DNA from: Candidatus Gastranaerophilales bacterium
GTDB lineage: Bacteria > Cyanobacteriota > Vampirovibrionia > Gastranaerophilales > Gastranaerophilaceae
NCBI GenBank assembly: GCA_900767135.1
Contig: CAAFYU010000005.1
Span: forward strand, 18,371 to 82,370
Reading direction: 5' to 3'
Length of the DNA: 64,000 nt
Position numbers and translations under genes: made by a program
Shown: piece after piece, positions 4,521 through 25,854 of the stretch
How the letters are laid out: every line of letters starts with the position of its first letter
Numbering within the stretch: position 1 is the stretch's first letter
Notes under the pieces: generated by a model
Databases searched by the model: none
What the model was told of the DNA's origin: nothing
What the model saw: only the letters and a program-made list of their open reading frames with translations

Positions 4521-4639
4521 AACTCAAATATTACAAGTAATTTGTTAAAAATGCATTAACCGATTAAATAATAAATTAGGACAATAAAAAAGACTGAGAA
4601 ATCCTCAGCCTTTTTATGTTTAAATATTTATAGTCTAAA

Positions 4640-5189: not shown

Positions 5190-5233
5190 TCAAAACACAA
5201 AAACCGTCGAATTGTAATGACAATCCGACGGTT
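5190..5233 (-). terminator. Rho-independent terminator of the Fe-ADH gene
   Basis: 8-bp stem AACCGTCG/CGACGGTT followed on the minus strand by a U-rich tract. Confidence 0.6.
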
Positions 5234-5252
5234 TAGTGCAAAAATAATTAAA

Positions 5253-6461: not shown

Positions 6462-6645
6462 AATAAACTCTCCTTTCTTAACATGTCAATTACGACAATA
6501 TTATAAAAAATGTAAATTAAAATTGCAAGCAAATTTTTTAAGATTTTTTGCAGGATTTTGGCAGAAAAATTTCATCTGTTTAGAGGTTTGACAAATCAAA
6601 AAATATTATTAATATATTCACAGGTAGAACAGAAGGTAAAAATTA

Positions 6646-7202
6646 TGGCAAACAATAATAATGGGATTTTATCAGGAATTTATTCAGGATTGAGTTCAAC
6701 ATATTCGCTTTTGGCATCGCAATATCCAAACGGTTTGACGTTGGAAAATATTACGGAAGCTAGAACAAAAACTTCTAACACAAATGTTTTGAACCAATCT
6801 TTTGCATCATATTTGCAAACAAATTTTGCAAATATTGATAAAAATGGCGATGGAATTATTTCGTCAGACGAGATGAATAATTTGTCTAATACGCTTTCAA
6901 CACAAGGACTTACAAAAGCAGAACTGACTCAACTTTATGCATCAGGTTCAAGCGGATTGTCAGAAAGCACAATGTCAAAAATCCTTGAACACTTTGACGA
7001 TATGGACACAAATCATGATGGAAGGATTACGAGTGCAGAAATTTCCGCTTATGACGTAAACGCTTCAAGAATGGCGGTTGAAGATGAGTTTAATAACCGT
7101 CGTGCAACTGATATGTCAGTGTTTTATGGCGATAGCTCTTCATCTTCTGCTGATTCTTATAATTTGTTGAGCTACAAGTATAAATCATCAACAAAATCTT
7201 AA
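6646..7202 (+). CDS. EF-hand calcium-binding-motif protein of unknown function
   Basis: Two canonical EF-hand loops, DKNGDGIISSDE and DTNHDGRITSAE. Ser/Asn-rich. Start set at the Met after AAGGTAAA. The longer track ORF starts at 6558. Confidence 0.6.
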
Positions 7203-7410
7203 AAACTTAAAACCATAAAATCTTAAATCTATTCATAATTCCTAAACTTAGTAACGATACATTTGGAAAGGAAATGACTTCTATTACATAGAGGTCATTT
7301 ATTTTTTATATTTCTTAATAAAACCTAAAGTTTTTTCATGAAATATCCGTTATACATTCCGTAAAAATAGAAATTGTAAAATGTAGAAACTTTACAGAAA
7401 GGACAGGTAT

Positions 7411-7797
7411 ATGGAAATTTCAGGAGTATCATCAAAAGCCTACACTTCGGCAGCCCAAGGGGTTGAAGAAGATGAAGAACTAGAAGAAACCAAAGAAGAG
7501 AAAGCCAAAGAATACGGGGTATCAGCAAAAGAGGAAGAAGAAAAAGACGTCACAGAATTTTCTTCATCAGACTATTCAAATACAGATGTGGAAGCGAAAG
7601 CTCAAAATTATTTGAAAAACATATTGTTTATCGGTAATTTGACAGATGAATCAAAAGCAGCTCTGACTCAGTATATGAACACATTTGATGTTGCAAAATT
7701 TATAAGAAATTATGGACCGTTTGCTTCTACATCGGAAATCTCAGCAGCAATGTATGCAGCAACGGCCGGCATGGTAAAACACCCTGAGTCGGACTAA
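7411..7797 (+). CDS. Small acidic protein with a Glu/Lys-rich N-terminal half; hypothetical
   Basis: 128 aa ORF preceded by AGAAAGGA. A rho-independent terminator follows at 7827-7859. Confidence 0.5.
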   Translation: MEISGVSSKAYTSAAQGVEEDEELEETKEEKAKEYGVSAKEEEEKDVTEFSSSDYSNTDVEAKAQNYLKNILFIGNLTDESKAALTQYMNTFDVAKFIRNYGPFASTSEISAAMYAATAGMVKHPESD

Positions 7798-7826
7798 TTT
7801 TTGAATATTTATGAACAAAAAAAAGA

Positions 7827-7859
7827 ATTATCCCTCACAACTTGCGGGGGATAATTTTA
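7827..7859 (+). terminator. Rho-independent terminator
   Basis: Stem ATTATCCCTC/GGGGGATAAT (one G-U pair), then TTTTAT. Confidence 0.55.
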
Positions 7860-8057
7860 TAATTTAGATAATGGTAAAAAAAAGAGCCTTTTTTAATAAG
7901 GCTCATTGGAATTAAGAATAGCTGGAAGTATGAAAAAGATTTAATAATTATATTAAACGAAAATCCCACTTGATTGCCAATTAGACTCGTGGATAAATTC
8001 ATATTAGTCAGGTGGGGGATTTGTTGACTTTCTAAGAGATTTCGTTATAAACAAAGT

Positions 8058-8447
8058 ATGACTATTTTGGAACTTTTTAAACTGAATAAGACCTGTGAAC
8101 ACGCAAAAGTTCGCCCTGACGTAGATTTTGCTTACTGTCCGGATTGCGGAGAACTCATTGAAAATCAGTGGTATTTAGTTCGCTGTGGCTGTTGTGGAGT
8201 CAAGTTAAAGGGGGTTATTAAAAATAAACAAATTATTCCAGAACTCCATTTTTGCCATAACTGTGGTGGGCGAGAGTTCATTGTTGAACGGATTAATAAG
8301 ATTAATTTTATAGATATAAGTTATGCAGTTCTGGTTAAAGCTGTTGTTCAAAACGGTAAAGCAGAAGATTACACTCAAAGTTGGGTTGATATAAATTTTG
8401 AAAGAAACAGTTACCCCAAAAAACTTTTGGGAGTAAAATTATCATAA
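8058..8447 (+). CDS. Multi-CxxC zinc-ribbon protein; hypothetical
   Basis: CPDCG, CGCCG and CHNCGG pairs typical of zinc ribbons. 129 aa. Confidence 0.45.
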   Translation: MTILELFKLNKTCEHAKVRPDVDFAYCPDCGELIENQWYLVRCGCCGVKLKGVIKNKQIIPELHFCHNCGGREFIVERINKINFIDISYAVLVKAVVQNGKAEDYTQSWVDINFERNSYPKKLLGVKLS

Positions 8448-8448
8448 C

Positions 8449-8486
8449 CCAATATTAGAGTGTGGTAGTATATTGGCAAATTTTTT
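8449..8486 (+). terminator. Stem-loop terminator between convergent genes
   Basis: CCAATAT/ATATTGG stem, 14-nt loop, then TTTTTT. Confidence 0.4.
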
Positions 8487-8488
8487 GA

Positions 8489-9967
8489 TTACACTTCTGC
8501 AATTACGTCAAGATGAACGTTATTTCCGATTTCTTCACGAGAAAGCACTGTAATATCGTTCATATATGTGCTCAAAAGCGAGAAAATAAGTTGCCTGAAT
8601 TCAAGTGGTGCTACCAAAATCGGACTCTCAATATTCAAAGTCTTTGCTTGCTTGTTAATTTTATTCGCCAATTTTTCTGCAAAACTTGCATCAATTCGAA
8701 TTATAGCATCTTCACTTTCTTCAAAATTCGGCAAGAATTTGTCCATTGTTTTGTCGGAAACTTCGAATGCCGAAATTGTATTTTCTTCATTACTAAGATT
8801 TCTGCATATTTGACGTGCCATAGTTAGACGAATCTTCTTTATCAAATCTGATTTAGAGCTTTCTTCTGCAAAATCGTTGATTTTTTCAAAAATGTACGAA
8901 ATGTTTTTTATTGAAACTCTTTCTCTAACCAAACTTGTCAAAATATACCGCAAATCAGAAAGTGAAATGTAGTCAGGGATAATGTTTTCAACTAAATATT
9001 CGTTGTTTTGGCTCACGACATCAATATATTTGTCTAGTTGGTCGTAATCCAACAATTCATCAACATACTTAACTGCACAGAATTCCAAAGCCCTTGCAAT
9101 AAATTCAGACCCAGATATTCCATTTTGCCAAAAATCTTTTGTTAAAGTTTTTTCTACCCAAATGATTTTTTTACCTGTGATTTCATCTATTGCAGAAACG
9201 GAATTTTTAATTTTCTTTTCAGTGTGCAGTTCGTCTGCAAAGAACATCAAGAAGTTTGGGTAAACCGTTGCAGTAAAGACATCTACACCTCGGATTTTAA
9301 TCGAAAACTCATAAGGATTTAGGTTTTCATCATCTTGAAAAACAATTTTTGGAATTACATAACCCAACTCCTCAGTTAGCTTCAAGCGGGTTTTTACGGT
9401 TTCTGCGACGAGCTCTTCTTCTTCAATTTCGCTGTCAGGATTTAGGTAACCCAAAATTTCTTCGCTTAAACAGATTGAAAGTTTTTCTTCTTTTAGTTTT
9501 GAATACATTGCATCAGGCGAAGTTGCTTTTGCAAGTTCAAGTTTCAAATCTTCCAATTCTTTTAGTCCCGCAGAAATTTTGTCGTTCAATTTCTTTCTGC
9601 TGACAGATGCCGGAGCTTCGCCTTCAAGCTCTTTTTTTACTTTTGCAATCTTTGCTTTTTGGTCTTTAATTTTGCTTTGAATATCCAAACAAATTTCGTA
9701 AGGAGATTGTTCAGGTGAAAGCATTTTTTCCATCTGGCTTTTGAATGATGAAATGTTGATGGTATCAGCATTTAGGTCATTCGACGAAGAAACTGCTTCA
9801 CGCATAAAAATGCAATTGCACAAAATTTGCCCGTCATCGCCTTCAACTTCTTGCATACTGTAAAGTTCCCAGTTGTTCATTGACATTTCATTCAGCAAGT
9901 TTTGAAGTTCTTGCGTATTGTCGCTGGCACAAGTTTTTATTACATATTGCATTTTTTTGTTTAACAT
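8489..9967 (-). CDS. Soluble FlhA/FHIPEP cytoplasmic-domain homolog lacking the transmembrane export-gate domain. Carries an N-terminal DUF4177-like module and a coiled-coil linker.
   Basis: 492 aa with no TM segments. Internal GYVIPKIVFQDDENLNPYEFSIKIRGVDV resembles the start of the FlhA cytoplasmic domain. RYILTSLVRERVSIKNISYIFEKINDFAEESSKSDLIKKIRLTMARQI and the C-terminal ...ITVLSREEIGNNVHLDVIAEV match conserved FlhA-C segments. The N-terminal ~55 aa (YVIKT...NEMSMNNWELYSMQ) resembles DUF4177. Confidence 0.55.
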   Translation of the reverse strand: MLNKKMQYVIKTCASDNTQELQNLLNEMSMNNWELYSMQEVEGDDGQILCNCIFMREAVSSSNDLNADTINISSFKSQMEKMLSPEQSPYEICLDIQSKIKDQKAKIAKVKKELEGEAPASVSRKKLNDKISAGLKELEDLKLELAKATSPDAMYSKLKEEKLSICLSEEILGYLNPDSEIEEEELVAETVKTRLKLTEELGYVIPKIVFQDDENLNPYEFSIKIRGVDVFTATVYPNFLMFFADELHTEKKIKNSVSAIDEITGKKIIWVEKTLTKDFWQNGISGSEFIARALEFCAVKYVDELLDYDQLDKYIDVVSQNNEYLVENIIPDYISLSDLRYILTSLVRERVSIKNISYIFEKINDFAEESSKSDLIKKIRLTMARQICRNLSNEENTISAFEVSDKTMDKFLPNFEESEDAIIRIDASFAEKLANKINKQAKTLNIESPILVAPLEFRQLIFSLLSTYMNDITVLSREEIGNNVHLDVIAEV

Positions 9968-9976
9968 TATTGCTCC

Positions 9977-10747
9977 TTATTTTTTGTCGTTTTCAATAAG
10001 AATTTTCAAAGCTTCAACAGCTGTTTTAATTGCCATATCGGTATCATGGACAACAGGATTTTCCAAACCTAATTTTTCTCTTTCCTGATTTGCCACAACC
10101 AAAAATACAGAACCAACCTTGACTCTCAAAAAGCTTCCAACGATAAACAGTGCTGCTGACTCCATTTCAGACGCCAAACACCCCATCTTTTTCCAAGCTT
10201 CCCACTTGTTCAAAAGTTCGTAGTTTACAGGCATTTTTTCAGGACTGTGTTGCCCGTAAAAAGAGTCTTTACACTGAACAACACCTGTGTGATATTCGTG
10301 TCCGAGATTTTTTGCTGCCTGAACAAGAGAATTTACTACATCTAAATTCGCAACTGCCGGAAATTCAATCGGAGCGTATTCTTTTGTAGTGCCTTCCATA
10401 CGGATTGCACCTGTTGCAATAACAATATCTCCGCCTTTAACGTCAGTTTGGACTCCACCGCAAGTTCCCACTCTGATGAAGGTTTTAGCTCCAACATTTA
10501 CAAGTTCTTCCAACGCAATAGAAGCAGAAGGTCCACCGATTCCGGTTGATGTAACACTGACTTTCACACCGTTTAAAAAACCTGTGTAAGTTGTGTACTC
10601 ACGTCTGTCTGCAACAAGTTTTGCGTCATCAAAATATTCGGCAATTTTGGCACAACGTTTCGGATCACCGGGCATAATTACATATTCGCCGACATCTCCA
10701 ACGTTTAAGCCGATGTGGTACTGTTCTCCATGTTCAGAATATTTCAT
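9977..10747 (-). CDS. Purine/uridine nucleoside phosphorylase (PNP/UDP family, DeoD/Udp type)
   Basis: 256 aa with the PNP-UDP fold pattern (GDPKR..., [28 protein letters not shown]). Confidence 0.8.
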
Positions 10748-10767
10748 AATTTCTCCTTAATTTCTAA

Positions 10768-11226
10768 TTAAAACTGACCGCTTTTTAATTTTTGAATAAC
10801 TAAGTCAGAAATGTCAACACCACCAACAAAAATTACTCTGTAATCAACAATTGCATCAAGTTTTTGTTCTACAAGAACTTGTTTTGTTGCAGCTTGAATT
10901 TTATTATAAACTTGTTCTTCTTTACTTGCTTTTAATCTCATATAAGCATCTTGTTTAAGTTTAAATTCTCTTGCTGTTTGATCTTCAAAATTTTGTTTTT
11001 TCAAAGGAGTATCCAAAGCTTTGTATTGTTTTTCTTTATCAACCATATATTGTTGCATTTCCAACGCTTTGGCGTCAATTTCTTTTACTGCTTGTTGAGC
11101 AAAAGGGAAACCATCTTGAACTTTTTGATAGTCAATATATCCTACTCCGGCTGCATTTGCTTGGTTACCAAGAGTTAGAAATAAACCTACACCCATTAAC
11201 AAAGCTGCTAATTTTAAATTTTTCAT
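10768..11226 (-). CDS. skp: OmpH/Skp-family periplasmic chaperone
   Basis: 152 aa with a signal peptide. Lys/Gln-rich coiled-coil body. Sits directly downstream of bamA, as is typical. Confidence 0.7.
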   Translation of the reverse strand: MKNLKLAALLMGVGLFLTLGNQANAAGVGYIDYQKVQDGFPFAQQAVKEIDAKALEMQQYMVDKEKQYKALDTPLKKQNFEDQTAREFKLKQDAYMRLKASKEEQVYNKIQAATKQVLVEQKLDAIVDYRVIFVGGVDISDLVIQKLKSGQF

Positions 11227-11238
11227 ATTATACCTCCA

Positions 11239-13191
11239 TTAGTACATTATATCGCCTACACCAAAAGTAAAGTAACCATTGTTGTTACCGTTACTACCCG
11301 GATTTGTAAGTGGAATACCGTAATCGATAGACAACGGTCCCATACCCGGAACATAAAGTTTTAAACCGACACCGGCAGATACTGCATAAAGCGGTCTGTC
11401 ATATATTTTATCCGTAATTGACGGGTTGAAAATTTTACCTGCGTCAGCCCAAACTGTAAATCTCAAATTATTTAAGAAGTTAATTCTTGTTCTGTCTAGG
11501 AACGGAATAGGAGTTGCAAATTCCGCACTACCCATAATGAACGCATCGCCGGTACCAACACCACTCATTTTGAAACCTCTGATAGTGTAAGGGCCACCTA
11601 AGCGGTATGCCATAACTTCCGGCATGTTGTCACCATGGATTTTTCCACCACCCTTAGCTGTGAATGACAAAGATGATTTTTTGCCGACAGGAATATATTG
11701 TTTAACCATACCGGTCAACTTACCATGGGTTTTATCAAAATCAAGAACTCCCAATTCTTCGTCAAATCTCAAGCTAGCCATAGTACCTTTTCTGGTAACT
11801 GTTGCACTATCTCTTGTGTCATACAAAAGAGCAGGGCTCAAAGATAGGAATAACCCACCGTCTAACTGTCTTGCACGTTCTGAAATCGGAATGTTGTATT
11901 TTGAATACAAACTTGTAATTTTACCTTTATCGCCTTCTGAAACATCAATATTTTCAACCCCGAGTGAGAAAGTTCCCGTCACGTGCTTGTTAAACTTCAT
12001 GCGGTGTGCAACAGTTGCTTCTGCACCAATTCTTCTTTCAATTGCAAGTGGAACTTGGTATGAACCAAAATCACGATAGAAAATCTTGCTCATCAATGAA
12101 GTATCGGCATTATAAAAATACGGTTTGAAATAGCTCAATTCAGCCTGTAAGTTCATACGACGTTTGATAGATGAGTCGTTCAAGATTACACCGGTACCTG
12201 CGATACCGTTTAGGGAAATTCTTTCGTTACGCCCCATAAAGTTGTTATCAGCAATTCCGACAGATCCGAAAACACCAGTTACAGAGTCGATACCACCACC
12301 AACAGAAATACTTGCGGTTCTTTGTTCTTCGATATTAATTGTGATGTCGTATTTGTCAGGATCGTCAGTCAGTTCAATCTCTCTTGTAACGTCTTTAAAC
12401 GCCTGAGTTGCGTAAAGTCTTACCAAATCTTCTTTCAACAAGTTTTCGTTATAAACCTGCCCAGGCTCAGTCAACACATTACGCTCAATAACGTAATCTT
12501 TTGTCTTTTCGTTGCCGGAAATCAAAATTCGATTGATAGTACCTTCTTTAATGCTAATGTTCACAGTTCCGTCCGGATCGTCTGAAACGGAATCAATTCT
12601 CGCGAGAATATAACCTTTTGAGCTATAACAGTCTTGGATTTTAGAAATCGCATCATTCAAATCTCCGATATTTTGGGGTTTGCCTTTCATCGGCAAAAGA
12701 TAGGATAGAATTTCATCGGTAGAAATTACGGTGTTACCTTCAATCGTAAAATCTGTTACAGGTGCATTTTCAACAAGAACAATTTTTAATGTAATGCTTC
12801 CATCTGCATTATTAATCGGGATAGCTTTCATTTTTTCGGTAAAGTAACCCATTTCATAAATGGCTTTTAAATCTCTTTGAACAAGTTCTCTGCTGTAAGT
12901 ATCGCCAACTTGCAATTTCATTTGTTGCAAAATCAAAGCTTTGTCAACAACGTTATTCCCCACAAATTCAATGTTTTTTATAACTCTTTTATCTTTATTA
13001 GTCGCAGTAACAGATGCAGACGTCATGGGTGTTTCGTCTACTGCTGTCTGAGTTGCGGTTGGAGTTTGGAGTTGTGTTTGAACTGTGTCAGACTCTTTCG
13101 TGTTTCCCCAAAAGCCCTTTGCAGAACCTTGAAGAGGGCACATTATAACCAACATGAGGGCTATTAAAGATATATATTTCTTATTATTCAA
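11239..13191 (-). CDS. bamA: Outer membrane protein assembly factor BamA (Omp85/D15)
   Basis: 650 aa. Signal peptide, POTRA-like N-terminal repeats, C-terminal beta-barrel ending in an aromatic residue (…FGVGDIMY). Confidence 0.85.
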   Translation of the reverse strand: MNNKKYISLIALMLVIMCPLQGSAKGFWGNTKESDTVQTQLQTPTATQTAVDETPMTSASVTATNKDKRVIKNIEFVGNNVVDKALILQQMKLQVGDTYSRELVQRDLKAIYEMGYFTEKMKAIPINNADGSITLKIVLVENAPVTDFTIEGNTVISTDEILSYLLPMKGKPQNIGDLNDAISKIQDCYSSKGYILARIDSVSDDPDGTVNISIKEGTINRILISGNEKTKDYVIERNVLTEPGQVYNENLLKEDLVRLYATQAFKDVTREIELTDDPDKYDITINIEEQRTASISVGGGIDSVTGVFGSVGIADNNFMGRNERISLNGIAGTGVILNDSSIKRRMNLQAELSYFKPYFYNADTSLMSKIFYRDFGSYQVPLAIERRIGAEATVAHRMKFNKHVTGTFSLGVENIDVSEGDKGKITSLYSKYNIPISERARQLDGGLFLSLSPALLYDTRDSATVTRKGTMASLRFDEELGVLDFDKTHGKLTGMVKQYIPVGKKSSLSFTAKGGGKIHGDNMPEVMAYRLGGPYTIRGFKMSGVGTGDAFIMGSAEFATPIPFLDRTRINFLNNLRFTVWADAGKIFNPSITDKIYDRPLYAVSAGVGLKLYVPGMGPLSIDYGIPLTNPGSNGNNNGYFTFGVGDIMY

Positions 13192-13268
13192 AAAATCTCT
13201 ACCTTAAAAACTTCAATTACTATCCTAAAAATATTATATCATAAATTAAAAAAAGTGTACTATGTAAA

Positions 13269-14078
13269 TTATTTTAAACATCTTTTGTAAATATCATTTT
13301 TATTAAGCCCATACAATTCGGCCAAAATCACCGATATATCTTTGGCTTTGAACCCTTTATTTTTAAGGCAATTGATTTTGTTTTCTATGTCAATATCAGA
13401 AAAATCTGACTTATCTCTAAAAACAAGTCCGACAATTTCACCTTTCAAAACGTTGGTTTCAAAATGATTTATCACATTTTCAACATTATCAATCACAATT
13501 TCTTCAAAAATTTTAGTCAATTCACGTCCGATTGCAACTTTTGAGTTTGGACGGAATTCTTTAACGATTTCCAAAGTGTTTAAAATCCTGTTCGGGGAGT
13601 CATAAAACACCATATCAGTGGCTTTGAATTGTTTAAGCAGGTTTTCAATTTGTAATTTTGTTTTTGGTAAAAATCCAACGAATGCAAAATCTTCACCTTC
13701 CCTTGCGACATGCGAAAGAAATGTCGCAACGGCATTCGCACCCGCCAAAGAAGTTACAGAAAAACCATTTTTTTGCAACTCGTCAACAATTACAGCCCCC
13801 GGATCGCAAAAAAGCGGAGTGCCTGCATCAGAAACAAGTGCGATTTTTTTGCCTTCTCTAAGCATGTTCAAAAACGCATCTACACGCTCTTTTTCATTAA
13901 ACTTGTGATAAGAAATACACTTTGTTTTGATATCGTAGTGATTGAGTAATTTTTGAGTAACTCGCATATCTTCGCAAGCAATCAAGTCAACAGATTTTAA
14001 AGTTTCAATTGCTCGAAGTGTTATATCACCAAGGTTTCCGATAGGAGTCGGAACTATGTAAAAATCGTATTCCTTCAT
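13269..14078 (-). CDS. rsmI: 16S rRNA (cytidine1402-2'-O)-methyltransferase RsmI
   Basis: Tetrapyrrole-methylase fold: IVPTPIGNLGDITLRAIETLK, IACEDMRVTQKLL, VSDAGTPLFCDPG. Has a C-terminal extension. Confidence 0.85.
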   Translation of the reverse strand: MKEYDFYIVPTPIGNLGDITLRAIETLKSVDLIACEDMRVTQKLLNHYDIKTKCISYHKFNEKERVDAFLNMLREGKKIALVSDAGTPLFCDPGAVIVDELQKNGFSVTSLAGANAVATFLSHVAREGEDFAFVGFLPKTKLQIENLLKQFKATDMVFYDSPNRILNTLEIVKEFRPNSKVAIGRELTKIFEEIVIDNVENVINHFETNVLKGEIVGLVFRDKSDFSDIDIENKINCLKNKGFKAKDISVILAELYGLNKNDIYKRCLK

Positions 14079-14124
14079 AGTTTGATTATAGCATAAATCT
14101 CATTGAATGAATAATTATTTTAGA

Positions 14125-14796
14125 TTAGTCATTCTCTAAGGACAATATTTCAAATAAGTTTTCATCTTTGCCATCAGAGATGCTGGTTGTTTTAATATTT
14201 TCATTCAGTTTTTCAAGAGTTTTTTCAACAGCCTCTCTGTTTGTTCGCATTGTAACAAGACCATCTTCCCCGCCAGTTTGTTTAAACCCGAGTTTCATAT
14301 ATTTCGAAACGGTACTGTACGGGCCATCTGTAATTGCAGTCAAATTAATGACTTTTGCCGGCGAATTTTGAAAATCTTCAAACATTTGTTTAAACAAAGT
14401 CTGTCCTGCCATTTTTACTTTTTTCCCGATTTCAGCAGGCCAAGTGCAGATGCAATCCAAATCGAACTTATTTTCTGTCGGTTTAAACGAAATTATTCCG
14501 CAAGGTTTTTTATTTACAGCCGCCAAATAGCTCTGTTCACCTCTATGAAAGGATTGTGAAATTACATATTCAAACAAAAATTGCCACCTGTTATATTGTT
14601 GTGTTGTAATCTTGTTGTCAGGCATCAAATCAATCATTTTTTTTGAACTTCTAAGTTGCATTAAAAAACGATCATCTTTTGGCGTCATTTTATATATATC
14701 AATAGTTGTTTTAAGCCCGTCAACAACATTTGTGGCTTTTGCGACATGAATTCCTTTAAAATTAGTCTTTGAGTTAAAGTTACTTTGAATTTGCAT
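14125..14796 (-). CDS. Hypothetical protein, possibly an acyl-CoA N-acyltransferase (GNAT-like) fold
   Basis: Start moved to the ATG 8 nt after AGAGG; the track start is a TTG at 14826. C-terminal ...YMKLGFKQTG resembles a GNAT motif, weakly. Confidence 0.45.
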   Translation of the reverse strand: MQIQSNFNSKTNFKGIHVAKATNVVDGLKTTIDIYKMTPKDDRFLMQLRSSKKMIDLMPDNKITTQQYNRWQFLFEYVISQSFHRGEQSYLAAVNKKPCGIISFKPTENKFDLDCICTWPAEIGKKVKMAGQTLFKQMFEDFQNSPAKVINLTAITDGPYSTVSKYMKLGFKQTGGEDGLVTMRTNREAVEKTLEKLNENIKTTSISDGKDENLFEILSLEND

Positions 14797-14853
14797 AAAA
14801 AATACCTCTGAGTATACAAAATTCAAAAATAATTTTTTTTGCTAATTGAAAAT

Positions 14854-15552
14854 TTATTGTACATTAAGTTTGTAACCGCCACCATAAATGGTTTCAATAT
14901 ACTTTTTCCCATTTGCGATTTTGTCAATTTTGCTTCTCAAATGTCTGATATGAACTCGAATTGTTTCAATATCATCGTCCGGCGAATACCCCCAAATATC
15001 TTTTAGAAGCTGAGCTGATGAAACCATATTTCCATGATTTTGAAAAAGTAAATTAAAAATATCAAATTCAATTGGGGTTAATTTAGCTTGTTTATCTCCG
15101 ATTTTCACACTATATAATTCCGGCAAAAGCGTGATTTCTCCGAGGGTCAAAAGTTCTCGAGTAGATGCACTTTCAGGAATTTGCAAAGTTCTTTTAAGAA
15201 GAGCCCTGACTCGAACTTGTAATTCTTCCATTTCAAAAGGTTTAACGAGATAATCATCAACCCCGAGATTAAACCCTTTTACCTTGTCGTTAATTTGCGA
15301 CAATGCTGTTAACATTAAAATCGGAATATTTTTTGTCTCTTCGTTTTTGCGAATTCTTTGAGCTACCGTAAATCCATCAACGTCAGGCATCATAACGTCC
15401 AAAATTACAAGTGAAGGAATTTCTTGTTTGCACAAAGCAAATCCCTTAATTCCGTCATAAGCCTGAACTACCTTATAACCGCAAAGTTCAAGGTTAACTT
15501 TTATAAGTTCGTTTATTGCTAAATCATCATCTATAACCAAAATCTTATTCAT
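14854..15552 (-). CDS. OmpR-family response regulator (receiver plus winged-helix), RpaB/Ycf27-like; no adjacent histidine kinase
   Basis: 232 aa. Receiver Asp pocket (VIDDD, ILDVMMP), ...LTAL...KVKGF..GVDDYLVKPF, and a C-terminal winged helix (YIETIYGGGYKL). Confidence 0.85.
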   Translation of the reverse strand: MNKILVIDDDLAINELIKVNLELCGYKVVQAYDGIKGFALCKQEIPSLVILDVMMPDVDGFTVAQRIRKNEETKNIPILMLTALSQINDKVKGFNLGVDDYLVKPFEMEELQVRVRALLKRTLQIPESASTRELLTLGEITLLPELYSVKIGDKQAKLTPIEFDIFNLLFQNHGNMVSSAQLLKDIWGYSPDDDIETIRVHIRHLRSKIDKIANGKKYIETIYGGGYKLNVQ

Positions 15553-15788
15553 ATCTGAATTTTATATACAAAAAACAAAAAATACAACTATTAATGTTAA
15601 AAAATATTAATAAAGATAGTACATTCGAATAATACAATATAACTTATTTTCGGACATATTTATTTGAAAAGATTTGTAAATAAATTTATTAAAAGTATAA
15701 AATTTACAAATTTTTTGATTTTTATTGTATTATAATATTGCGAAAAGCGATTTGTAGGAAAAATATACATTTATAGGAGGCACATGAA

Positions 15789-16241
15789 TTGGCACTAACA
15801 TCACCATTTACAGCATTTAAGAACGGTAAAAAAGAAATTCACTTAGGACAACATGTCTTAGCAGAGTTTTTTGAATGTGACCCAAACACATTGAACAGTT
15901 TGGACAAAGTTGAAAAATACATGGTAGATGCCGCCCTTGAATGTGGTGCGACCGTTGTTCAAAAATGTTTCCACATGTTCAACCCTTATGGCGTTTCAGG
16001 TGTAGTAATTATTTCAGAAAGCCACTTGGCAATTCACACTTGGCCTGAACTTGGATACGCAGCGGTAGATTTGTTTACTTGCGGTGATAAATGTGATCCA
16101 AAAGTTTCTTATGAATTTTTGAAGAAAAAATTTAATTCGAAAAAGGCTACTTTTTCTGAGCTAAAAAGAGGTATTATTGACGAAGCTACTCTTAAAGTCG
16201 CAGAAAAACCTTTCGAAATAATGCAGCAATTTGCTGATTAA
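15789..16241 (+). CDS. speH: S-adenosylmethionine decarboxylase proenzyme (class 1B, SpeH type)
   Basis: GQHVLAEFFECD and SESHLAIHTWPE are hallmark AdoMetDC motifs. TTG start 8 nt after AGGAGG. The ATG at 15784 is too close to the RBS and hits a stop after 4 codons. Confidence 0.8.
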   Translation: MALTSPFTAFKNGKKEIHLGQHVLAEFFECDPNTLNSLDKVEKYMVDAALECGATVVQKCFHMFNPYGVSGVVIISESHLAIHTWPELGYAAVDLFTCGDKCDPKVSYEFLKKKFNSKKATFSELKRGIIDEATLKVAEKPFEIMQQFAD

Positions 16242-16275
16242 TTAATAGACTTTTTTATTGTATACAACAATTTTT

Positions 16276-16305
16276 GTTCCATACCCCCCGTATGGAACTT
16301 TTTTT
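16276..16305 (+). terminator. Rho-independent terminator of speH
   Basis: 9-bp stem GTTCCATAC/GTATGGAAC, CCCCC loop, T7 tract. Confidence 0.8.
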
Positions 16306-16430
16306 ATCTATAATTGTAATAGGCATTCTGAAAGTATAGAATTTTTCATGTTAACTCATGTAAAAAATTTGCCTTCATGACATGACAACAGTATATGGTT
16401 TTAATATGATTATCTTAATAGGGGGTAGAA

Positions 16431-16910
16431 ATGCCGGAAGATTTATTAGAAAGAAAATCAAATTTTGACTTAACATCTAGAAGTGCTTTTTCAAATAACG
16501 AGGAAGTTTTCACATCTCGTTCGTACGCTGCACTTTTGGCGAAAAATATCATTCCATATTCGCATAAAAAAATTGCAGATAATTATACGATTATTAAAAA
16601 AGTTTTTAAATTCCAGGCTGTAATGCCAAGAATAACAAATGCAGAAAAGACTCTTTTGGCAAAGTATGATTTTAATACTCTTGAATACACGACAGTAAAA
16701 CAAATGTATGAAGAATTGACACTATTGCAGAAATGGTCTATGTCTGATGACGAAAATTTAAAAAAAGATTCTGATGCAATTTTAGAAATTCGAACAAAAG
16801 AGTTGAAATATATTATCGCAACAAGTTACGCCAATATTTCTAACGAAATATATAGAGGTTACTTAGCTTTGGAAAATTATTTTATCGAAATCAGCAAATA
16901 TTCTGACTAA
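16431..16910 (+). CDS. Hypothetical protein
   Basis: 159 aa ORF with a GGGGG/GTAG RBS-like stretch. Followed by a strong terminator. Confidence 0.4.
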   Translation: MPEDLLERKSNFDLTSRSAFSNNEEVFTSRSYAALLAKNIIPYSHKKIADNYTIIKKVFKFQAVMPRITNAEKTLLAKYDFNTLEYTTVKQMYEELTLLQKWSMSDDENLKKDSDAILEIRTKELKYIIATSYANISNEIYRGYLALENYFIEISKYSD

Positions 16911-16935
16911 AATTTTAAACAAACAATAAAAAAAA

Positions 16936-16969
16936 TTATCCCAAACATTTCGTGAGGGATAATTTTTTT
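16936..16969 (+). terminator. Rho-independent terminator
   Basis: Stem TTATCCC/GGGATAA, 13-nt loop, T7 tract. Confidence 0.7.
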
Positions 16970-17015
16970 ACTTTACTTTTCAATCCATAAAGGGTGGTTG
17001 AAACAGCTACGTTCC

Positions 17016-17330
17016 TTACGAAGTCGTTAGCTTTTTAAATTCTACCAACACCTAATGGGTGGGTGGAGCGGCACTTTTTACGAAGTCGCTTATCTTTTAA
17101 ATCGCACCAACACCTAATGAGTGGGTGAAGCTTCAAGCTTCTTACGAAGTCGCTTATCTTTTAAATCGCACCGACACCTAATGAGTGGGTGAAGCTTCAA
17201 GCTTCTTACGAAGTCGTTGGCTTTTAAAATCGCACCAACACCCAAAGGGCGGGTGGAGCGGCACTTTTTACGAAGTCGCTTATCTTTTAAATCGCACCAA
17301 CACCTAATGGGTGGGTGAAGCTTCAAGCTT
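17016..17330. repeat. Tandem array of five ~62-64 bp units. Core: TTACGAAGTCGCTTATCTTTTAAATCGCACCAACACCTAATGRGTGGGTG. Two alternating 3' variants: ...GAGCGGCACTTT (A) and ...AAGCTTCAAGCTTC (B), in order A-B-B-A-B.
   Basis: Direct reading. Units start at 17016, 17078, 17142, 17206 and 17268. The array ends at the base before the ppdK stop codon (17331). Confidence 0.9.
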
Positions 17331-20009
17331 CTATTTGCAACCTAGTGGTAATGAGATGTCTTTGGATTGTTTGAACTCAATTACCGCTTGAGCTGCTGCA
17401 AGACGAGCTTGCGGAACTCTGAACGGAGAGCAAGAAACATAATTCAAGCCAATTCTGTGGCAGAATTTTACTGATGCCGGATCTCCACCATGTTCTCCAC
17501 AGATACCACGTTTAAGGTGAGGTCGAACTTTTAGAGCTTTGTCGAGTGCTATTTTCATTAATTGTCCAACACCTTCTTGGTCAAGTGTTGAGAATGGGTT
17601 AGCTGGAAGAATTTTTTGTTCTACATAGTTTTGTAGGAACTTGCCTTCCGCATCATCTCTTGAAAAGCCGAAAGTCATCTGAGTCAAGTCGTTTGTACCG
17701 AATGAGAAAAATTCTGCATATTCTGCAATTTGATCTGCTGTTAGGGCAGCACGAGGAATTTCAATCATTGTACCAAACATATAGTCGACTCTGACGTTCT
17801 TTTCGTCCATAACTTCATTTGCAACACGTTCTAGAACTTCTTTTACGGTTTTAAGTTCATTTACGTGCCCTACAAGTGGAATCATGATTTCAGGTTTAAC
17901 ATCTAAACCTTCTTTTTTCAAGTCGCAAGCTGCATAGAAGATTGCACGAACCTGCATTTCATTGATTTCCGGATAAGTAAGACCAAGACGACAACCTCTA
18001 AGTCCCATCATTGGGTTAGATTCAGACATTGCTTCGACGATGTTTAGAAGCTTTTCATCTTCTTTGTAATCTTCGCCTTTTGCTTTTTTAGTAGCAACTT
18101 TTGCGATAAGTTCTTCCTTATCAGGCAAGAATTCGTGAAGAGGTGGGTCAAGAAGTCTGATTGTCATTGATTTGTCGCCTAATGCTTTAAACATAGCGTG
18201 AAAATCACTGTATTGCATAGGGAGCAAGTGTTCTAGTGCTTCTTTTCGAGCTTCCGGAGTACCTGCAATAATCATTTTTTGAACCCAAGGAAGTCTTTCA
18301 GGATCCATAAACATGTGTTCTGTTCTGCAAAGTCCAACGCCTTCTGCACCAAGTTCCAGAGCTTTTGCAACGTCAGCCGGTGTATCAGCATTTGCACGAA
18401 CGCCTAACAATTTGATATCGTCAACCCATTCGAACAATTTTTTGAAATTGTCGTCCATTGTAGGCGGAACAAGATGAATTGCACCGTCCATAACTTCGCC
18501 AGTACCACCATCTAAGGAGATTACGTCGTTTTTGTGGTAAACAGTTCCGTCACCGGCTGTTAGAGTTTCATTTTTAAGATCAATTGAAAGGTCTTCGCAA
18601 CCTGCAACACAAGGTTTTCCCATACCTTTTGCAACAACGGCTGCGTGAGATGTCATTCCGCCACGAAGAGTTAAAACACCTTGTGACTCAATCATACCAT
18701 GGATATCGTCAGGGCAAGTTTCAATTCTTACCAAGATAACTTTTTCACCTGCTTTGCCTCGTTCTGCTGCTTCTTCGGTGTCAAAAACGATTTTACCTAC
18801 TGCTGCACCAGGGGAAGCTGCAAGACCTTGGGCTATTTTATGTGCTTCTTTTTTAGCTTTCGGGTCAAAGTCAGGAAGTAGTACTTGATATAGTTGATTT
18901 GCATCAACAAGTTCTACTGCTCTTTCTTTGTCTATAATGCCTTCTTCGCACATTTCAACGGCAATTCTGACTGATGCTTTTGCGGTTCTTTTTCCGTTAC
19001 GAGTTTGCAAAATCCACAATTTGCCTCTTTCGATTGTAAATTCCATATCTTGAACATCTTTGTAGCCTTTTTCAAGTTTTTTCGCGATGTCAACGTATTG
19101 CTTGTAAAGTTCAGGCATTTCGTGTTCAAGTTCTGCGATAGGTTTTGGAGTTCTGATACCTGCAACAACGTCTTCACCCTGAGCGTTGGTTAGATATTCC
19201 CCATAGAACTTGTTTTCGCCTGTTGACGGGTTTCTTGTGAAAGAAACACCTGTCGCACAATCGTCGCCCATGTTGCCGAATACCATTGTTTGAACGTTTA
19301 CGGCAGTTCCGTAATTATGGTCGATTTTGTAATGTTCTCTGTATGCAACGGCACGTGGAATATTCCATGAGCGGAATACGGCTTCAATTGATTCTTCAAG
19401 TTGAACGTACGGATCTTGCGGAAAATCTTTGCCTGTTTCTTTTTTGATTAAGTCTTTGTAAGGTTGAATTAAAGATTTCCAGTCGTCTGCTGTCAGGTCT
19501 GTATCTGATTTGTATCCTTTTTCTTCTTTAATTTTGTCTAGGTAGTCTTCAAATTTTTGTCTGTCGATTTCCCAAGCAACAGAGCCGAACATTGTCAAAA
19601 ATCTTCTATATGAGTCATAACAAAATCTCGGATTGTTTGTTAGCTTAATCATACCTTCAACAGTTTGGTCGTTTAAACCTAAGTTAAGGATAGTTTCCAT
19701 CATGCCTGGCATTGAAAGTCTTGCACCTGAACGAACAGAAACTAAAAGCGGGTTTTCAGCATCACCAAATTTTTTCCCTGCTTGTTTTTCAATAGTATGA
19801 AGAGCTTCTCTAACCTCGTCCATAAGCCCTATTGGCATTTTATTGCCATGGTTAATGTAATCCATACAGGTTTCTGTGGTAATCGTAAGCCCCGGTGGAA
19901 CTGGCAAACCTAAATTTGTCATCTCTGCAAGGTTAGCACCTTTGCCACCCAAAAGGTTACGCATATCTGCATTGCCTTCTTTGAACAACCATACACGTTT
20001 TGCACTCAT
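17331..20009 (-). CDS. ppdK: Pyruvate, phosphate dikinase
   Basis: 892 aa. PPDK N-terminus (LFKEGNADMRNLLGGKGANLAEM), phosphohistidine region (GGMTSHAAVVA), PEP-utilising C-terminal domain. Has a ~12 aa C-terminal extension (…KQSKDISLPLGCK). Confidence 0.95.
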   Translation of the reverse strand: MSAKRVWLFKEGNADMRNLLGGKGANLAEMTNLGLPVPPGLTITTETCMDYINHGNKMPIGLMDEVREALHTIEKQAGKKFGDAENPLLVSVRSGARLSMPGMMETILNLGLNDQTVEGMIKLTNNPRFCYDSYRRFLTMFGSVAWEIDRQKFEDYLDKIKEEKGYKSDTDLTADDWKSLIQPYKDLIKKETGKDFPQDPYVQLEESIEAVFRSWNIPRAVAYREHYKIDHNYGTAVNVQTMVFGNMGDDCATGVSFTRNPSTGENKFYGEYLTNAQGEDVVAGIRTPKPIAELEHEMPELYKQYVDIAKKLEKGYKDVQDMEFTIERGKLWILQTRNGKRTAKASVRIAVEMCEEGIIDKERAVELVDANQLYQVLLPDFDPKAKKEAHKIAQGLAASPGAAVGKIVFDTEEAAERGKAGEKVILVRIETCPDDIHGMIESQGVLTLRGGMTSHAAVVAKGMGKPCVAGCEDLSIDLKNETLTAGDGTVYHKNDVISLDGGTGEVMDGAIHLVPPTMDDNFKKLFEWVDDIKLLGVRANADTPADVAKALELGAEGVGLCRTEHMFMDPERLPWVQKMIIAGTPEARKEALEHLLPMQYSDFHAMFKALGDKSMTIRLLDPPLHEFLPDKEELIAKVATKKAKGEDYKEDEKLLNIVEAMSESNPMMGLRGCRLGLTYPEINEMQVRAIFYAACDLKKEGLDVKPEIMIPLVGHVNELKTVKEVLERVANEVMDEKNVRVDYMFGTMIEIPRAALTADQIAEYAEFFSFGTNDLTQMTFGFSRDDAEGKFLQNYVEQKILPANPFSTLDQEGVGQLMKIALDKALKVRPHLKRGICGEHGGDPASVKFCHRIGLNYVSCSPFRVPQARLAAAQAVIEFKQSKDISLPLGCK

Positions 20010-20100: not shown

Positions 20101-21732
20101 TTAATTGTGAAAATCTTTTCCGCCAACTATCCGCAAGTGTCTGTTTGTGCCTTCACCAATTGACTTGCTCGTCATATTATGTTGTTCTACAAGTTCGTGT
20201 TGAAGTTTTCTAATATGTTGATTTTGAGGTTGCAATTCAACTGATTCGGTTCCGGCAAGAATTTTATTAATAGCAGCTTTTGCCTCGTCCAAAGCTCTTT
20301 CTGCATCATCATAATATCCGCAAAGAGTTTCAGATGCTTCTGTTATTTGCAATGCCTCTTTCAAAACCTTTTGAATTTGAGCCATAGAATTTGTTTTTAC
20401 ATAAAATATCTGCAACCTGTAATCGTTTGCAGTACTCAAAACTTTTGCTCCACCTTTGATAAAGTTTTTGTGAGCAATAACAATATCTGCCTCATCGAGG
20501 TTACGAGTAATTTCTGCGTTCAAGTTCAAGCGTTCGATTACTTTTTCCACAATCGTTCTTGAAACCGCATAAAGATAAATCTTCTTAAATCCTTTTACTT
20601 CATCTACATATTTTTGTCTTGAAAATGAAAATTTCAAACTGTCCGTATTATGTTCGGGCTGAATTTTTTGTTCCAATTTGTTGATTTCTTTGGGTATATC
20701 AGTAATTGTCGGTTCAGATTTTTGTGGATTTGTCGAAGGCATTTCGCCTTCATAAGACTTATCAACCTTTCTAATCTCTGGTCTAATCGGCCAACCCCTC
20801 AAAATATAATCAACCGCTTCTGCCGTATCTTTATAGACTGCAAGCGTATTTCTGTCTAAAATTTCTATTACAACATCAAAAGTCGGTTGTTTTTCACGCT
20901 CCAAAACCGTTTTTTGGGAAGCCCTACGTTTTGCTTCATCATCACCCAAGGTAACGGATTGAATTCCACCGACCAAATCCGACAATGTCGGGTTTTTGAT
21001 AAGGTTTTCCAAACTATTACCGTGAGCGGTTGCAATCAACATAACCCCACGTTCTGCAATGGTACGTGCGGCTTGTGCTTCTGCCTCTGTACCAATTTCA
21101 TCGACAACGATAACCTCAGGGGTGTGATTTTCAACCGCCTCAATCATAATATCCTTCTGAAATTCGGGCTGAGTAACTTGCATACGACGTGCATGCCCGA
21201 TTGCAGGGTGCGGAGTATCTCCATCGCCCGCAATTTCGTTTGAAGTATCTACAATTACAACTCGTTTCCCAAGTTCATCGGCAACAAGACGAGAAATTTC
21301 TCTTAATTTTGTCGTTTTACCGACACCGGGACGTCCGAGGAACAAAATACTTTTGTTCATCATACAAATATCTTTTATACAAGCAATCGTACCTGTTACA
21401 ACACGACCGATACGGCAAGTTAGGCCAATAACCTTCCCTTGTCTGTTTCTAATCGCACTGATACGGTGAAGAGTTCCGGGAATACCTGACCTATTATCTG
21501 ACGTAAATTCTTGAATTCGACTCGTAATATAATTTATATCTTCATCTGTTACAAACTCGTCGCCAAGATACTCAATCTTCCCGCCGGCATGACGAATTTC
21601 CGGGGTTCTGCCGATATCCAAGACAATTTCAATTACATCTTCCATTTTTTCATAAGAGATGTGCTTTTTTACCTTTTCGGGTAAAACTTCTGTCAATCGG
21701 TCTAAGTCGTTTTGAAATTGTAAGTTGCTCAT
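20101..21732 (-). CDS. Ycf45/SpoIIIAA-like AAA ATPase with an R3H nucleic-acid-binding region
   Basis: Walker A (GRPGVGKTT) and Walker B (VIVVDEIGTEAEA). Domain order matches the cyanobacterial/plastid Ycf45 family. Start trimmed to MSNLQF (ATG at 21732). Confidence 0.65.
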   Translation of the reverse strand: MSNLQFQNDLDRLTEVLPEKVKKHISYEKMEDVIEIVLDIGRTPEIRHAGGKIEYLGDEFVTDEDINYITSRIQEFTSDNRSGIPGTLHRISAIRNRQGKVIGLTCRIGRVVTGTIACIKDICMMNKSILFLGRPGVGKTTKLREISRLVADELGKRVVIVDTSNEIAGDGDTPHPAIGHARRMQVTQPEFQKDIMIEAVENHTPEVIVVDEIGTEAEAQAARTIAERGVMLIATAHGNSLENLIKNPTLSDLVGGIQSVTLGDDEAKRRASQKTVLEREKQPTFDVVIEILDRNTLAVYKDTAEAVDYILRGWPIRPEIRKVDKSYEGEMPSTNPQKSEPTITDIPKEINKLEQKIQPEHNTDSLKFSFSRQKYVDEVKGFKKIYLYAVSRTIVEKVIERLNLNAEITRNLDEADIVIAHKNFIKGGAKVLSTANDYRLQIFYVKTNSMAQIQKVLKEALQITEASETLCGYYDDAERALDEAKAAINKILAGTESVELQPQNQHIRKLQHELVEQHNMTSKSIGEGTNRHLRIVGGKDFHN

Positions 21733-21959
21733 TTTCTTTTCTGCCTTTCTGATATTTTGTATATATAACAAAATAATTATCGGCTGATTACAATTTCGCA
21801 CCCGCAGCGAAACTAATATTTATTTTTTATAAACTCAATTCACCTTTCTATTTATATTATACCACTTTTTTACAAAAATTCATCAATCCAAAGTATTACA
21901 TCAGTAGCAATTTTACATTTTTTAATATTGACTTAATTACACTTATTATTAATTCCCAC

Positions 21960-24558: not shown

Positions 24559-25854
24559 ATGAGTTTAGACGGAAAAATCAATTACAATTACGCAGGGTAT
24601 CAATTAAAATTTGATCCATCAAAAACAAGTTCAACAATTATGGACTTTAACACTCCAAAACCAAAAGTACAACAAGCAAAGTACACAAACACACAAATCG
24701 GAAATATTTGGGGACAACCGACAAGCAGGATATACACATCTAGTCAAAATGCAGCTCCTGTGTTTAGTCAATATACAACTCCGACTTTAAGTCAAAATGC
24801 AGCTCCAATATTCAACCAACAGCCAAAGGTATACACACCTGTTCAGAATACAGCACCTTTGTTTAGTCAATATACGACTCCTACATTAAGTCAAAATACG
24901 GCTCCGATATTCAATCAACCGACAAACACTCTTAATGTTCAGCCACCACTAACACAATCAACAAATCTCACATCAAATATACCGGCAAAACCACAGAATG
25001 CATATTCAGGTAGTTTACCACCAGTTAAGAATGGGGATATGTATGGCAAATTTTTAGCCCAAAATCCAGTTCCACAAGCTACACCAATTCAACTTATAGA
25101 TGAAAATAAAGCAGTAGCAGACAAACCTATTACAGGTGACACTGATGCCGGCAAACAAGCTAAACCTAAAAAAGTAAAAACAGCTGAACAACGTGCAGCA
25201 CAGTTAAGAAAAATCAGAAGCAACCCAAGAGCAAGATCTCTATATAAAAGATTAAAATTAAAAAACAATCCGGAACTTGCAAGCAGATATGAAAATTATT
25301 GCAAATCCGTAAAAAATTCTAACAAACTAAAAGGTTTGAAAAAAGCAGGTAAATGGGGTGCACTTGCAGCCTTGGCAATTGGTACAGTTGCAGTAGCAGT
25401 TCAAGCTTGCAAAGGCGACAAAAAAGACGACGCCGTAAAACCGGAAACAACACAACCGGTAGCAGACACACAAACTCCGGCAGAACCGGCAAAACCAGCA
25501 GAAGAAACTCCTGCAACACCAGCTCCGGCACCAACAGAGCCTGAAACTCCTGTCGAACAAACAAATCCGGTAGCACCTGTCGAAATAGGCGTTGGCGAAT
25601 TCAATGACGGCAAATATAAGGTTAAAAAAGGTGATACTTTCTGGAATATCGCAGAAAAAAATCTAATTGAAGAATACAAAAAAGCTCAAACTGCTAAAAA
25701 TGAAGCAATTGACGAAAATTACAAACCAACAGATGCAGAAATCTTGAAAGAAACTGAAAGATTAGTTGCGAAGAACAAATATGAATTTGACGAAAAACAT
25801 TGGAATACAACAAAACCGATTTATGAAGGCGACATCTTAAATATTGCAGCGTAA
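24559..25854 (+). CDS. Membrane-anchored protein with an N-terminal Q/N/T/P-rich repeat region, one TM helix, a Pro/Glu/Thr-rich linker and a C-terminal LysM-like peptidoglycan-binding domain
   Basis: Tandem ~30-aa repeats (YTTPTLSQNAAPIFNQ...). TM segment WGALAALAIGTVAVAV. C-terminal YKVKKGDTFWNIAEKNL...IYEGDILNI resembles LysM. Confidence 0.55.
   Translation: MSLDGKINYNYAGYQLKFDPSKTSSTIMDFNTPKPKVQQAKYTNTQIGNIWGQPTSRIYTSSQNAAPVFSQYTTPTLSQNAAPIFNQQPKVYTPVQNTAPLFSQYTTPTLSQNTAPIFNQPTNTLNVQPPLTQSTNLTSNIPAKPQNAYSGSLPPVKNGDMYGKFLAQNPVPQATPIQLIDENKAVADKPITGDTDAGKQAKPKKVKTAEQRAAQLRKIRSNPRARSLYKRLKLKNNPELASRYENYCKSVKNSNKLKGLKKAGKWGALAALAIGTVAVAVQACKGDKKDDAVKPETTQPVADTQTPAEPAKPAEETPATPAPAPTEPETPVEQTNPVAPVEIGVGEFNDGKYKVKKGDTFWNIAEKNLIEEYKKAQTAKNEAIDENYKPTDAEILKETERLVAKNKYEFDEKHWNTTKPIYEGDILNIAA

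Follow-up and report, generated by a model that had tools for sequence, protein, structure and literature searches.

A lineage-specific stem-loop minisatellite between the ppdK stop codon and a predicted terminator in gut Melainabacteria

What is a head-to-tail array of repeats doing directly behind ppdK, the gene for pyruvate, phosphate dikinase (PPDK), in a gut bacterium of an uncultured phylum? We addressed this question in a 64,000-nt stretch of Candidatus Gastranaerophilales DNA (hereafter the window, meaning this stretch at its full length; G+C 35%) and in related loci from genome and metagenome collections. The reading that we favor, tentatively, is that the array is a transcribed 3'-UTR stem-loop minisatellite of ppdK, confined to one lineage and one locus, which perhaps shields the 3' end of the mRNA; its close rival is a near-neutral minisatellite.

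Results and Discussion

Five Repeats Adjoin the ppdK Stop Codon

In the window, ppdK occupies 17331..20009 on the minus strand (892 aa; ORF list) and ends in a TAG stop codon at 17331-17333. Its product carries the Pfam domains PPDK_N, PEP-utilizers, and PEP-utilizers_C and scores 1368 bits against the NCBIfam equivalog TIGR01828 (cutoff 843). The array consists of five direct repeats of 62-64 bp each at 17016-17331, between this stop codon and a bidirectional terminator hairpin. Tandem Repeats Finder places it at 17015-17332 with a period of 64, 5.0 copies, 83% matches, and a score of 436, by a wide margin the strongest tandem repeat of the window. At ≤3 mismatches, the 31-nt 5' part of the repeat core occurs three times and the 23-nt 3' part five times; neither part has a copy in the rest of the 64-kb window, and dinucleotide shuffles yielded 0 matches to either. 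Read on the plus strand, the units follow the order A-B-B-A-B, distinguished by two tail variants, of which tail B contains two HindIII sites.

A first-pass annotation of the window had described five tandem ~63-bp repeats in this order, which both Tandem Repeats Finder and the sequence bear out; its further statement that they fill the intergenic space needs amending, as a partial unit and a terminator remain beyond them, the stretch at 16911-16975 holding a terminator-type hairpin between an A-run and a T-run. The boundary at ppdK also shifts: the array had been said to end at the base before the stop codon, and it instead overlaps the stop by one base (17331), in that the 15-nt inverted repeat GAAGCTTCAAGCTTC spans 17317-17331 and its last base complements the G of TAG (17331-17333).

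Numbered in ppdK sense (minus strand), unit 1 is a 64-nt type B unit at 17268..17331 (unit dissection; nhmmer E=3.7e-21) that opens with a hairpin, GAAGCU-UGA-AGCUUC, at 17317-17331, beginning at the G of UAG. Unit 2 (17206..17267, 62 nt, type A; E=3.7e-20) has the corresponding hairpin decayed by a 2-nt deletion (AAAGUGCCGCUCC). Units 3 (17142..17205; E=7.5e-20) and 4 (17078..17141; E=1.9e-20), both 64 nt and type B, differ by one base, and unit 5 (17016..17077, 62 nt, type A; E=2.5e-19) has a more diverged linker, GGUAGAAUUUAAAAAGCUAAC. A sixth, degenerate partial unit (GGAACGUAGCUGUUUC + AACCACCCUUUAUGGAUUG) at 16976..17015 is recognized weakly by nhmmer (E=0.034), and a terminal partial unit of this kind closes every array in all strains compared. 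Tail A is a decayed, 2-nt-deleted copy of the palindrome GGAGCGTGCCGCTCC, which is intact in other strains. The two tail variants first taken to be the only ones are thus those of the window; across strains, the variable palindrome has at least six variants and there are at least 27 distinct full units. The 70-aa ORF called inside the array is an artefact, as had been suspected: neither unit length, 62 or 64 nt, is divisible by three, and unit number and composition differ by strain.

The Array Very Probably Belongs to the ppdK Transcript

Folding reveals a bidirectional intrinsic-terminator-type hairpin at 16928..16969 (both strands; A-run, AAUUAUCCC ... GGGAUAAUU, U-run), with a stable 14-bp stem in the MFE and centroid folds of both strands; a consensus scan overlooked it because its loop exceeds 8 nt. 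The hairpin is predicted to end both the ppdK transcript (minus strand) and that of a convergent 159-aa ORF (16431..16910, plus strand; ORF list), which bounds the intergenic region in the window strain. This ORF had no match in Pfam, NCBIfam, or PADLOC, and its place is taken by other genes in other strains. Promoter-like sites were found neither inside the array, on either strand, nor between ppdK and the array. In all 19 array-bearing loci assembled below, the array starts at the ppdK stop and a terminator hairpin follows it, with three different terminators across four or more synteny contexts. Its position after the stop and before the terminator, the lack of an internal promoter-like site, and its travelling together with ppdK lead us to regard the array as very probably part of the ppdK transcript; the 3'-UTR placement proposed at first recurs in every synteny context. 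All 19 array-bearing ppdK genes end in TAG, with the G forming the first base of the first hairpin, and array-less relatives end in TAA or TAG; the uniform TAG could reflect a constraint from the hairpin or merely shared ancestry.

One Locus in One Lineage

An exact look-up of the PPDK protein returned ten gut-metagenome contigs (L001-L010), and close PPDK variants led to three further array members (including L027 and L050). A pattern scan of 185,579 species genomes gave two matches (L011 and L012), both MAGs titled 'uncultured Candidatus Melainabacteria bacterium', and a second, different pattern gave four contigs (L013-L016) in JGI metagenomes, these scans of collections requiring exact pattern matches and the genomes being MAGs. 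The 19 array-bearing loci thus comprise two genome MAGs, four metagenome contigs, and 13 loci retrieved through ppdK. All six pattern-scan matches lie immediately 3' of a ppdK stop codon, and an nhmmer profile of the full units detected no other significant copy in the window, the 10-kb flanks, or the loci around RNase HII. The first-pass annotation had asked whether the unit is dispersed or unique: every copy found in related genomes and metagenomes sits at a ppdK stop, and since the pattern scans and nhmmer found none elsewhere, the repeat appears to be tied to one locus rather than dispersed.

Divergence at fourfold-degenerate sites of ppdK (d4) groups all array-bearing genes into a single clade, within which d4 reaches 0.36 at most; of the array-less lineages, the nearest (L046-48) stands at 0.42-0.46 and four others near 0.5. 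The clade consists of gut "Candidatus Melainabacteria" and spans several species, and the element is present in 19/19 sampled members, so that the absence of any conservation in related strains, which would have marked the array as a neutral minisatellite in the first-pass annotation, is not what we find. The five outgroup lineages lack the array, and in them a short spacer separates the stop codon from an intrinsic terminator. The empty site of L046-48 reads TAA, 22 nt, and then a terminator, T2; this terminator and the small ORF downstream of it are the same as those behind the array in L005-L011. The simplest history is a single gain in the ancestor of the clade, by insertion after the stop codon and ahead of the ancestral terminator, and the distribution indicates that the array has been retained in every sampled descendant through repeated rearrangement of the flanking genes.

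A mobile-element or phage origin was rejected, with no blastn match in phage or plasmid collections; for relatives in IMG/VR, one pattern scan was empty and the other gave two chance matches inside a coding region. Origin from a duplicated 3' end of ppdK was likewise set aside, the alignment of the unit with the last 120 nt of the gene being no better than those of shuffles; a hint in that direction is the peptide PLGCK* in the gene vs PLGVGRI* in one frame of the unit. Our literature search found no paper combining Melainabacteria with tandem or intergenic repeats, and the TRIP1 repeats of E. coli proved unrelated in kind; a lineage-specific 3'-UTR minisatellite at ppdK is previously undescribed.

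Two features of the surrounding DNA were recorded alongside. T2 is followed by a pair of small hydrophobic ORFs, one of 82-87 aa and one of 40 aa (L005:10804-11174, L006:12935-13304), which have a promoter-like TATAAT of their own, occur in several strains and in the empty-site lineage, and matched neither an NCBIfam nor a PADLOC family. A tRNA that looks like tRNA-Ala lies ~200 nt downstream of ppdK in array-less relatives (L017:4400-4480; L028-L037 at about 4380-4460), followed by a strain-specific serine recombinase, HNH, reverse transcriptase, or AAA_15/SMC_N ATPase gene, which suggests that this tRNA region is an integration hotspot.

Anatomy, Covariation, and Folding of the Unit

Across strains the unit measures 62-65 nt and, in ppdK sense, has four parts. 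Hairpin 1 has a 6-bp stem and a 3-4-nt loop; that of the first unit opens with the G of UAG. In hairpin 2, the C-rich ACCCRYCC pairs across a loop with the G/U-rich GGUGUUGGU, in the register ACC-CRYC(C) ... (G)GGUG-UU-GGU. An A/U-rich linker follows, and then the nearly invariant 12-nt ACGACUUCGUAA. Versions of hairpin 1 include GAAGCU/AGCUUC, GGAGCU/AGCUCC, GGAGCG/CGCUCC, and GGAACG/CGUUCC, with the G.U intermediate GGAGCG/CGUUCC.

To gauge pairing, we counted covariation over 29 distinct segments spanning hairpins 1 and 2. In hairpin 1, 91% of cells are paired and 3/6 pairs show compensatory double changes (GC/AU; GC/AU with a GU intermediate; GC/UA); in hairpin 2, 83% are paired, with one-sided changes only (A-U/G.U and C-G/U.G). 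The covariation score was reached by 0/500 shuffles and pairing in the real register was 86% vs 31-50% in slid controls, counts that are inflated because the units share a recent history of duplication. Outside its loop-closing pair, hairpin 2 has 23 G.U cells vs ~4 A.C cells, and G.U pairs form only in ppdK-sense RNA; hairpin 1 shows the opposite asymmetry, 13 A.C vs 1 G.U. As the two hairpins disagree, assignment of a strand from these counts was dropped.

Folding energies are unremarkable. Per-unit energies were no better than those of mononucleotide shuffles on either strand (mean z about -1), the RNAalifold consensus amounts to only -5.4 kcal/mol, and roughly one in three distinct units (type A) has a broken hairpin 1. 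The z-scores of -3 and -4 for the whole array arise from pairing between units, as in any tandem repeat. We therefore reject a highly structured RNA on the per-unit MFE z of about -1 on both strands; what survives of the structured RNA first suggested is weakly supported, two short hairpins with some covariation in units that fold no better than shuffles. No Rfam family reached threshold on the array in gathering or E-value mode, and over the whole 64-kb window Rfam returned one tRNA and nothing else.

Conservation along the unit is uneven: mean column identity is high in the 3' motif (0.95) and hairpin 2 (0.90) and lower in the linker (0.76) and in hairpin 1 (0.75), whose changes are compensated. 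The longest invariant run spans 11 columns (permutation p=0.027), and we found no structural explanation for the invariance of ACGACUUCGUAA.

Turnover, Exchange, and the Case for Neutrality

Across the clade, arrays have between 0 and 5 full units plus one partial, and between 1 and 5 full units among strains with identical PPDK protein, numbers that come from short-read metagenome assemblies and are possibly under-called or partly collapsed. Such variation among strains was among the checks first proposed for the array; at one extreme, L013 has no full unit and only the terminal partial one, and at the other, the arrangement of the window is reproduced exactly in an independent assembly (L002). 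Composition also differs among strains with identical PPDK protein. In L009, L012, and L027 a segment of ~107 nt interrupts the loop of hairpin 2 (L009:12700-12806; L027:4265-4371 and 4453-4524; L012:4061-4132) and carries a 15-bp terminator-type hairpin, AGCGCUAUUUACAGA...UCUGUAAGUAGCGCU, then UUUU. A 90%-identical copy of this insert is the ppdK terminator in L012 and L027. The insert copies of L009 and L027 are 100% identical despite a 35% difference between the two ppdK genes at fourfold sites, which points to a recent exchange of material between lineages at this locus.

Between close strains (d4 0.05-0.09), best-match units diverge by 0.11-0.18, more than the synonymous sites, and the array therefore turns over faster than these sites. 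Between the most distant lineages, unit divergence is 0.09-0.26 at an adjacent d4 of 0.35. This plateau is suggestive of a bounded pool of permitted unit variants, and it is not decisive because exchange between lineages would also fit it and could mimic conservation.

These data bear directly on a selectively neutral origin, in which a short hairpin-bearing segment inserted a single time after ppdK and slippage has lengthened and shortened it ever since without consequence for the cell, its palindromes being kept complementary by templated (quasipalindrome) mutation and by the recent common descent of the units. Restriction to one clade with absence from relatives, the range of 0-5 copies including a strain without a full unit, the decayed hairpin 1 of type A units, the ordinary folding energy, and the rapid turnover between close strains would all be expected of such an element. 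Neutrality accounts less readily for an array that was never lost in 19 sampled loci at d4 up to 0.36, for the uneven conservation of the unit and its 11-column invariant run, for full compensatory changes at three stem positions, one with a G.U intermediate, and for units that are less diverged than the neighboring fourfold sites between the most distant lineages. We regard neutrality as possible though, on balance, doubtful. The protective 3'-UTR reading has its own difficulty, in that close relatives do without the array and have a short 3' UTR. On either account, the genome-specific minisatellite among the identities first listed is the description that fits best, with one locus, one lineage, and a varying copy number.

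Rearranged Flanks and Possible DNA-Level Roles

Gene order beside ppdK varies among strains with identical PPDK (window 1-17015 vs L005-L011, L038-L043, and L050). The segment running from the 159-aa gene as far as RecJ has been inverted or rearranged, one of its breakpoints falling where the array ends distally, and the upstream neighbor of ppdK is either an R3H/SpoIIIAA-like gene or a POR operon, depending on the strain. Close strains show at least four downstream and at least two upstream contexts, throughout which ppdK and the array stay together. An inversion mediated by the repeat was considered and rejected, as the far junction lacks a unit copy by nhmmer and its best local alignment was matched by 50/200 shuffles. 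In the window, the upstream neighbor (20101-21801, minus strand) is a 566-aa SpoIIIAA-like ATPase/PTPase/R3H protein with a weak PADLOC match to mad8 (E=4e-7, 28 bits), behind which there is probably only a shared ATPase domain.

Such a hotspot of rearrangement would suit an array that acts as DNA, in which the palindromic hairpin 1 (7+7 nt) is bound by a dimeric protein and the 63-64-bp period, about six helical turns, sets the sites on the same face of the helix, with possible roles in nucleoid organization, in recombination, or as a barrier to replication or transcription. The near-perfect palindrome of hairpin 1 with its covarying arms, and the A.C intermediates that do not fit pairing in sense-strand RNA, are further points in its favor. 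However, the far end of the rearranged segment has no second copy, and the palindrome sequence is not conserved, with six or more variants where a sequence-specific site would lead one to expect constancy. Moreover, GC skew does not switch at the array, no conserved candidate gene for a binding protein adjoins it, and the G.U pairs of hairpin 2 would be meaningless in duplex DNA. We consider binding sites at the DNA level unlikely.

Could the 3' UTR Act in Trans?

The same transcript may be imagined to serve other molecules than its own, being processed to one or more small RNAs or acting as a sponge for protein or RNA through its C-rich, anti-Shine-Dalgarno-like CACCCRYCC motifs; a variant of this idea is a repeat RNA of the type III antitoxin kind. 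Tandem identical units followed by a terminator, a single-stranded A/U-rich linker between hairpins that is a plausible RNase site, and an invariant 12-nt ACGACUUCGUAA that structure does not explain would all be in keeping with it. It is harder to reconcile with the variable genes downstream, among which there is no conserved toxin-like gene and no PADLOC, NCBIfam, or Pfam match, with the lack of a promoter of its own and of an Rfam family match, and with the predicted pairing of the C-rich tract inside hairpin 2. Pairing between the 3' UTR and the 5' UTR was rejected, as the duplex energy of the unit with the ppdK leader was no better than that of shuffles. To a trans-acting RNA we assign a low probability, and the more specific notion that the ppdK 3' UTR is a multivalent regulatory RNA, which would offer C-rich anti-Shine-Dalgarno-like tracts and ACGACUUCGUAA to a protein or to target mRNAs, seems just as improbable. 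Were this regulatory reading true, unit number would tune central carbon metabolism, and the locus would be a gene-anchored contingency locus at the RNA level.

Comparison with Known Repeat Systems

With its period of 62-65 bp, which matches that of a repeat plus spacer, and its partly palindromic repeated segment, the array mimics a CRISPR, and a weak Rfam match to CRISPR-DR15 falls on the degenerate terminal unit (16977-17004, E=0.22), although its 21.4 bits are far below the gathering score of 36. Unlike a CRISPR, however, the array repeats the whole 64-nt unit without unique spacers; its variable block is a covarying 13-16-nt palindrome, of which the same few versions turn up repeatedly, both within a strain and among strains. 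Moreover, it abuts a stop codon without a leader, embedded in a 3' UTR, and no cas gene, by Cas Pfam domains, lies within ~10 kb on either side in any synteny context. A CRISPR array or remnant, already dismissed in the first-pass annotation, is in our judgment so improbable as to be negligible.

REP elements and their BIME clusters in enterobacteria are described in PMC2817692 and PMC3733652. Like these, the array consists of extragenic palindromic stem-loops just after a stop codon, inside a transcription unit, and forms a tandem cluster of a few alternating variants; in many units, the tetranucleotide GUAA/GUAG directly before the palindrome is reminiscent of GTAG-tagged REPs. REPs number more than 100 dispersed copies per genome, have longer stems, alternate in orientation within BIMEs, and are mobilized by RAYT transposases, whereas the array occupies one locus, has all units in direct orientation and a 64-nt unit with two hairpins, and no dispersal was found. 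The MIRU-type VNTRs of mycobacteria are intergenic direct repeats of 40-100 bp, oriented with the gene, that touch or overlap its stop codon and vary in copy number, and in these respects the array agrees, with units of 62-65 nt, a 1-nt stop overlap, and 0-5 full units (as counted from short reads). MIRUs, however, occupy ~40 loci per genome within operons and contain short ORFs that couple translation; here there is a single locus, none of the unit lengths (62, 64, and 65 nt) is divisible by three, no ORF is conserved, and the gene that follows either converges on ppdK or lies beyond a terminator.

BOX elements of Streptococcus pneumoniae, with the organization boxA-boxB(n)-boxC, are treated in PMC3049150. 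They resemble the array in their modularity, variable module number, hairpins, and distinct terminal module. In BOX elements the ~45-bp internal module varies in number, the hairpins are stable, transcription is shared with neighboring genes, and a distinct terminal module closes the element; unlike the single-locus array, BOX elements are MITE-like and present in more than 100 dispersed copies. The type III antitoxin ToxI, a tandem array of 5.5 x 36 nt followed by an intrinsic terminator, shares with our array short tandem RNA units before such a terminator, but the array lacks a promoter of its own and a downstream toxin of the ToxN/AbiQ type, and its unit is nearly twice as long. The genes downstream of the array in other strains, small membrane-like proteins among others, had no match in PADLOC, NCBIfam, or Pfam.

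Identity with REP/BIME, MIRU, or type III antitoxin systems is therefore rejected, as the dispersal of the first two and the promoter and toxin of the third were not found. As head-to-tail repeats at a fixed locus with polymorphism in unit number, the array qualifies as a generic VNTR and belongs to the class of bacterial intergenic minisatellites, among which it is unusual in being anchored to a gene, in its covarying hairpins, and in its retention across several species. Of the named systems, a REP/BIME cluster comes closest to it in presumed mode of action, and a MIRU-type VNTR in appearance.

A Possible Effect in Cis on ppdK mRNA

REPs are barriers to 3'-to-5' exonucleases that stabilize the upstream mRNA, and the 3' inverted repeats of chloroplasts likewise stabilize the upstream message. 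With REP/BIME hairpins and chloroplast 3' inverted repeats as the model, we propose, for a stem-loop minisatellite that protects its own transcript, that the chain of stem-loops would act in cis on the ppdK mRNA as a 3'-to-5' exonuclease barrier or as a processing platform. Unit number may change through replication slippage or unequal recombination, and would in turn modulate ppdK mRNA stability, possibly with a small effect.

If the hairpin chain does stabilize or process ppdK mRNA, the strains provide a natural series relating the dosage of 3'-UTR hairpins to expression, in the same gene for a central glycolytic/gluconeogenic enzyme, with 0 to 5 units by strain, in an uncultured gut phylum. 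If it is neutral, the locus documents well the birth and turnover of a minisatellite whose empty site is known. In both cases, it is usable as a VNTR marker for typing strains of these gut Melainabacteria, and annotation pipelines are warned that the period of the array mimics a CRISPR and that spurious ORFs arise in it.

A second long-period tandem repeat of the window lies at 24731-24926 (period 99, 2.0 copies, 83% matches), with a nested 24-nt periodicity. It falls inside a 431-aa ORF without a Pfam domain (24559-25854), which probably encodes a repetitive protein.
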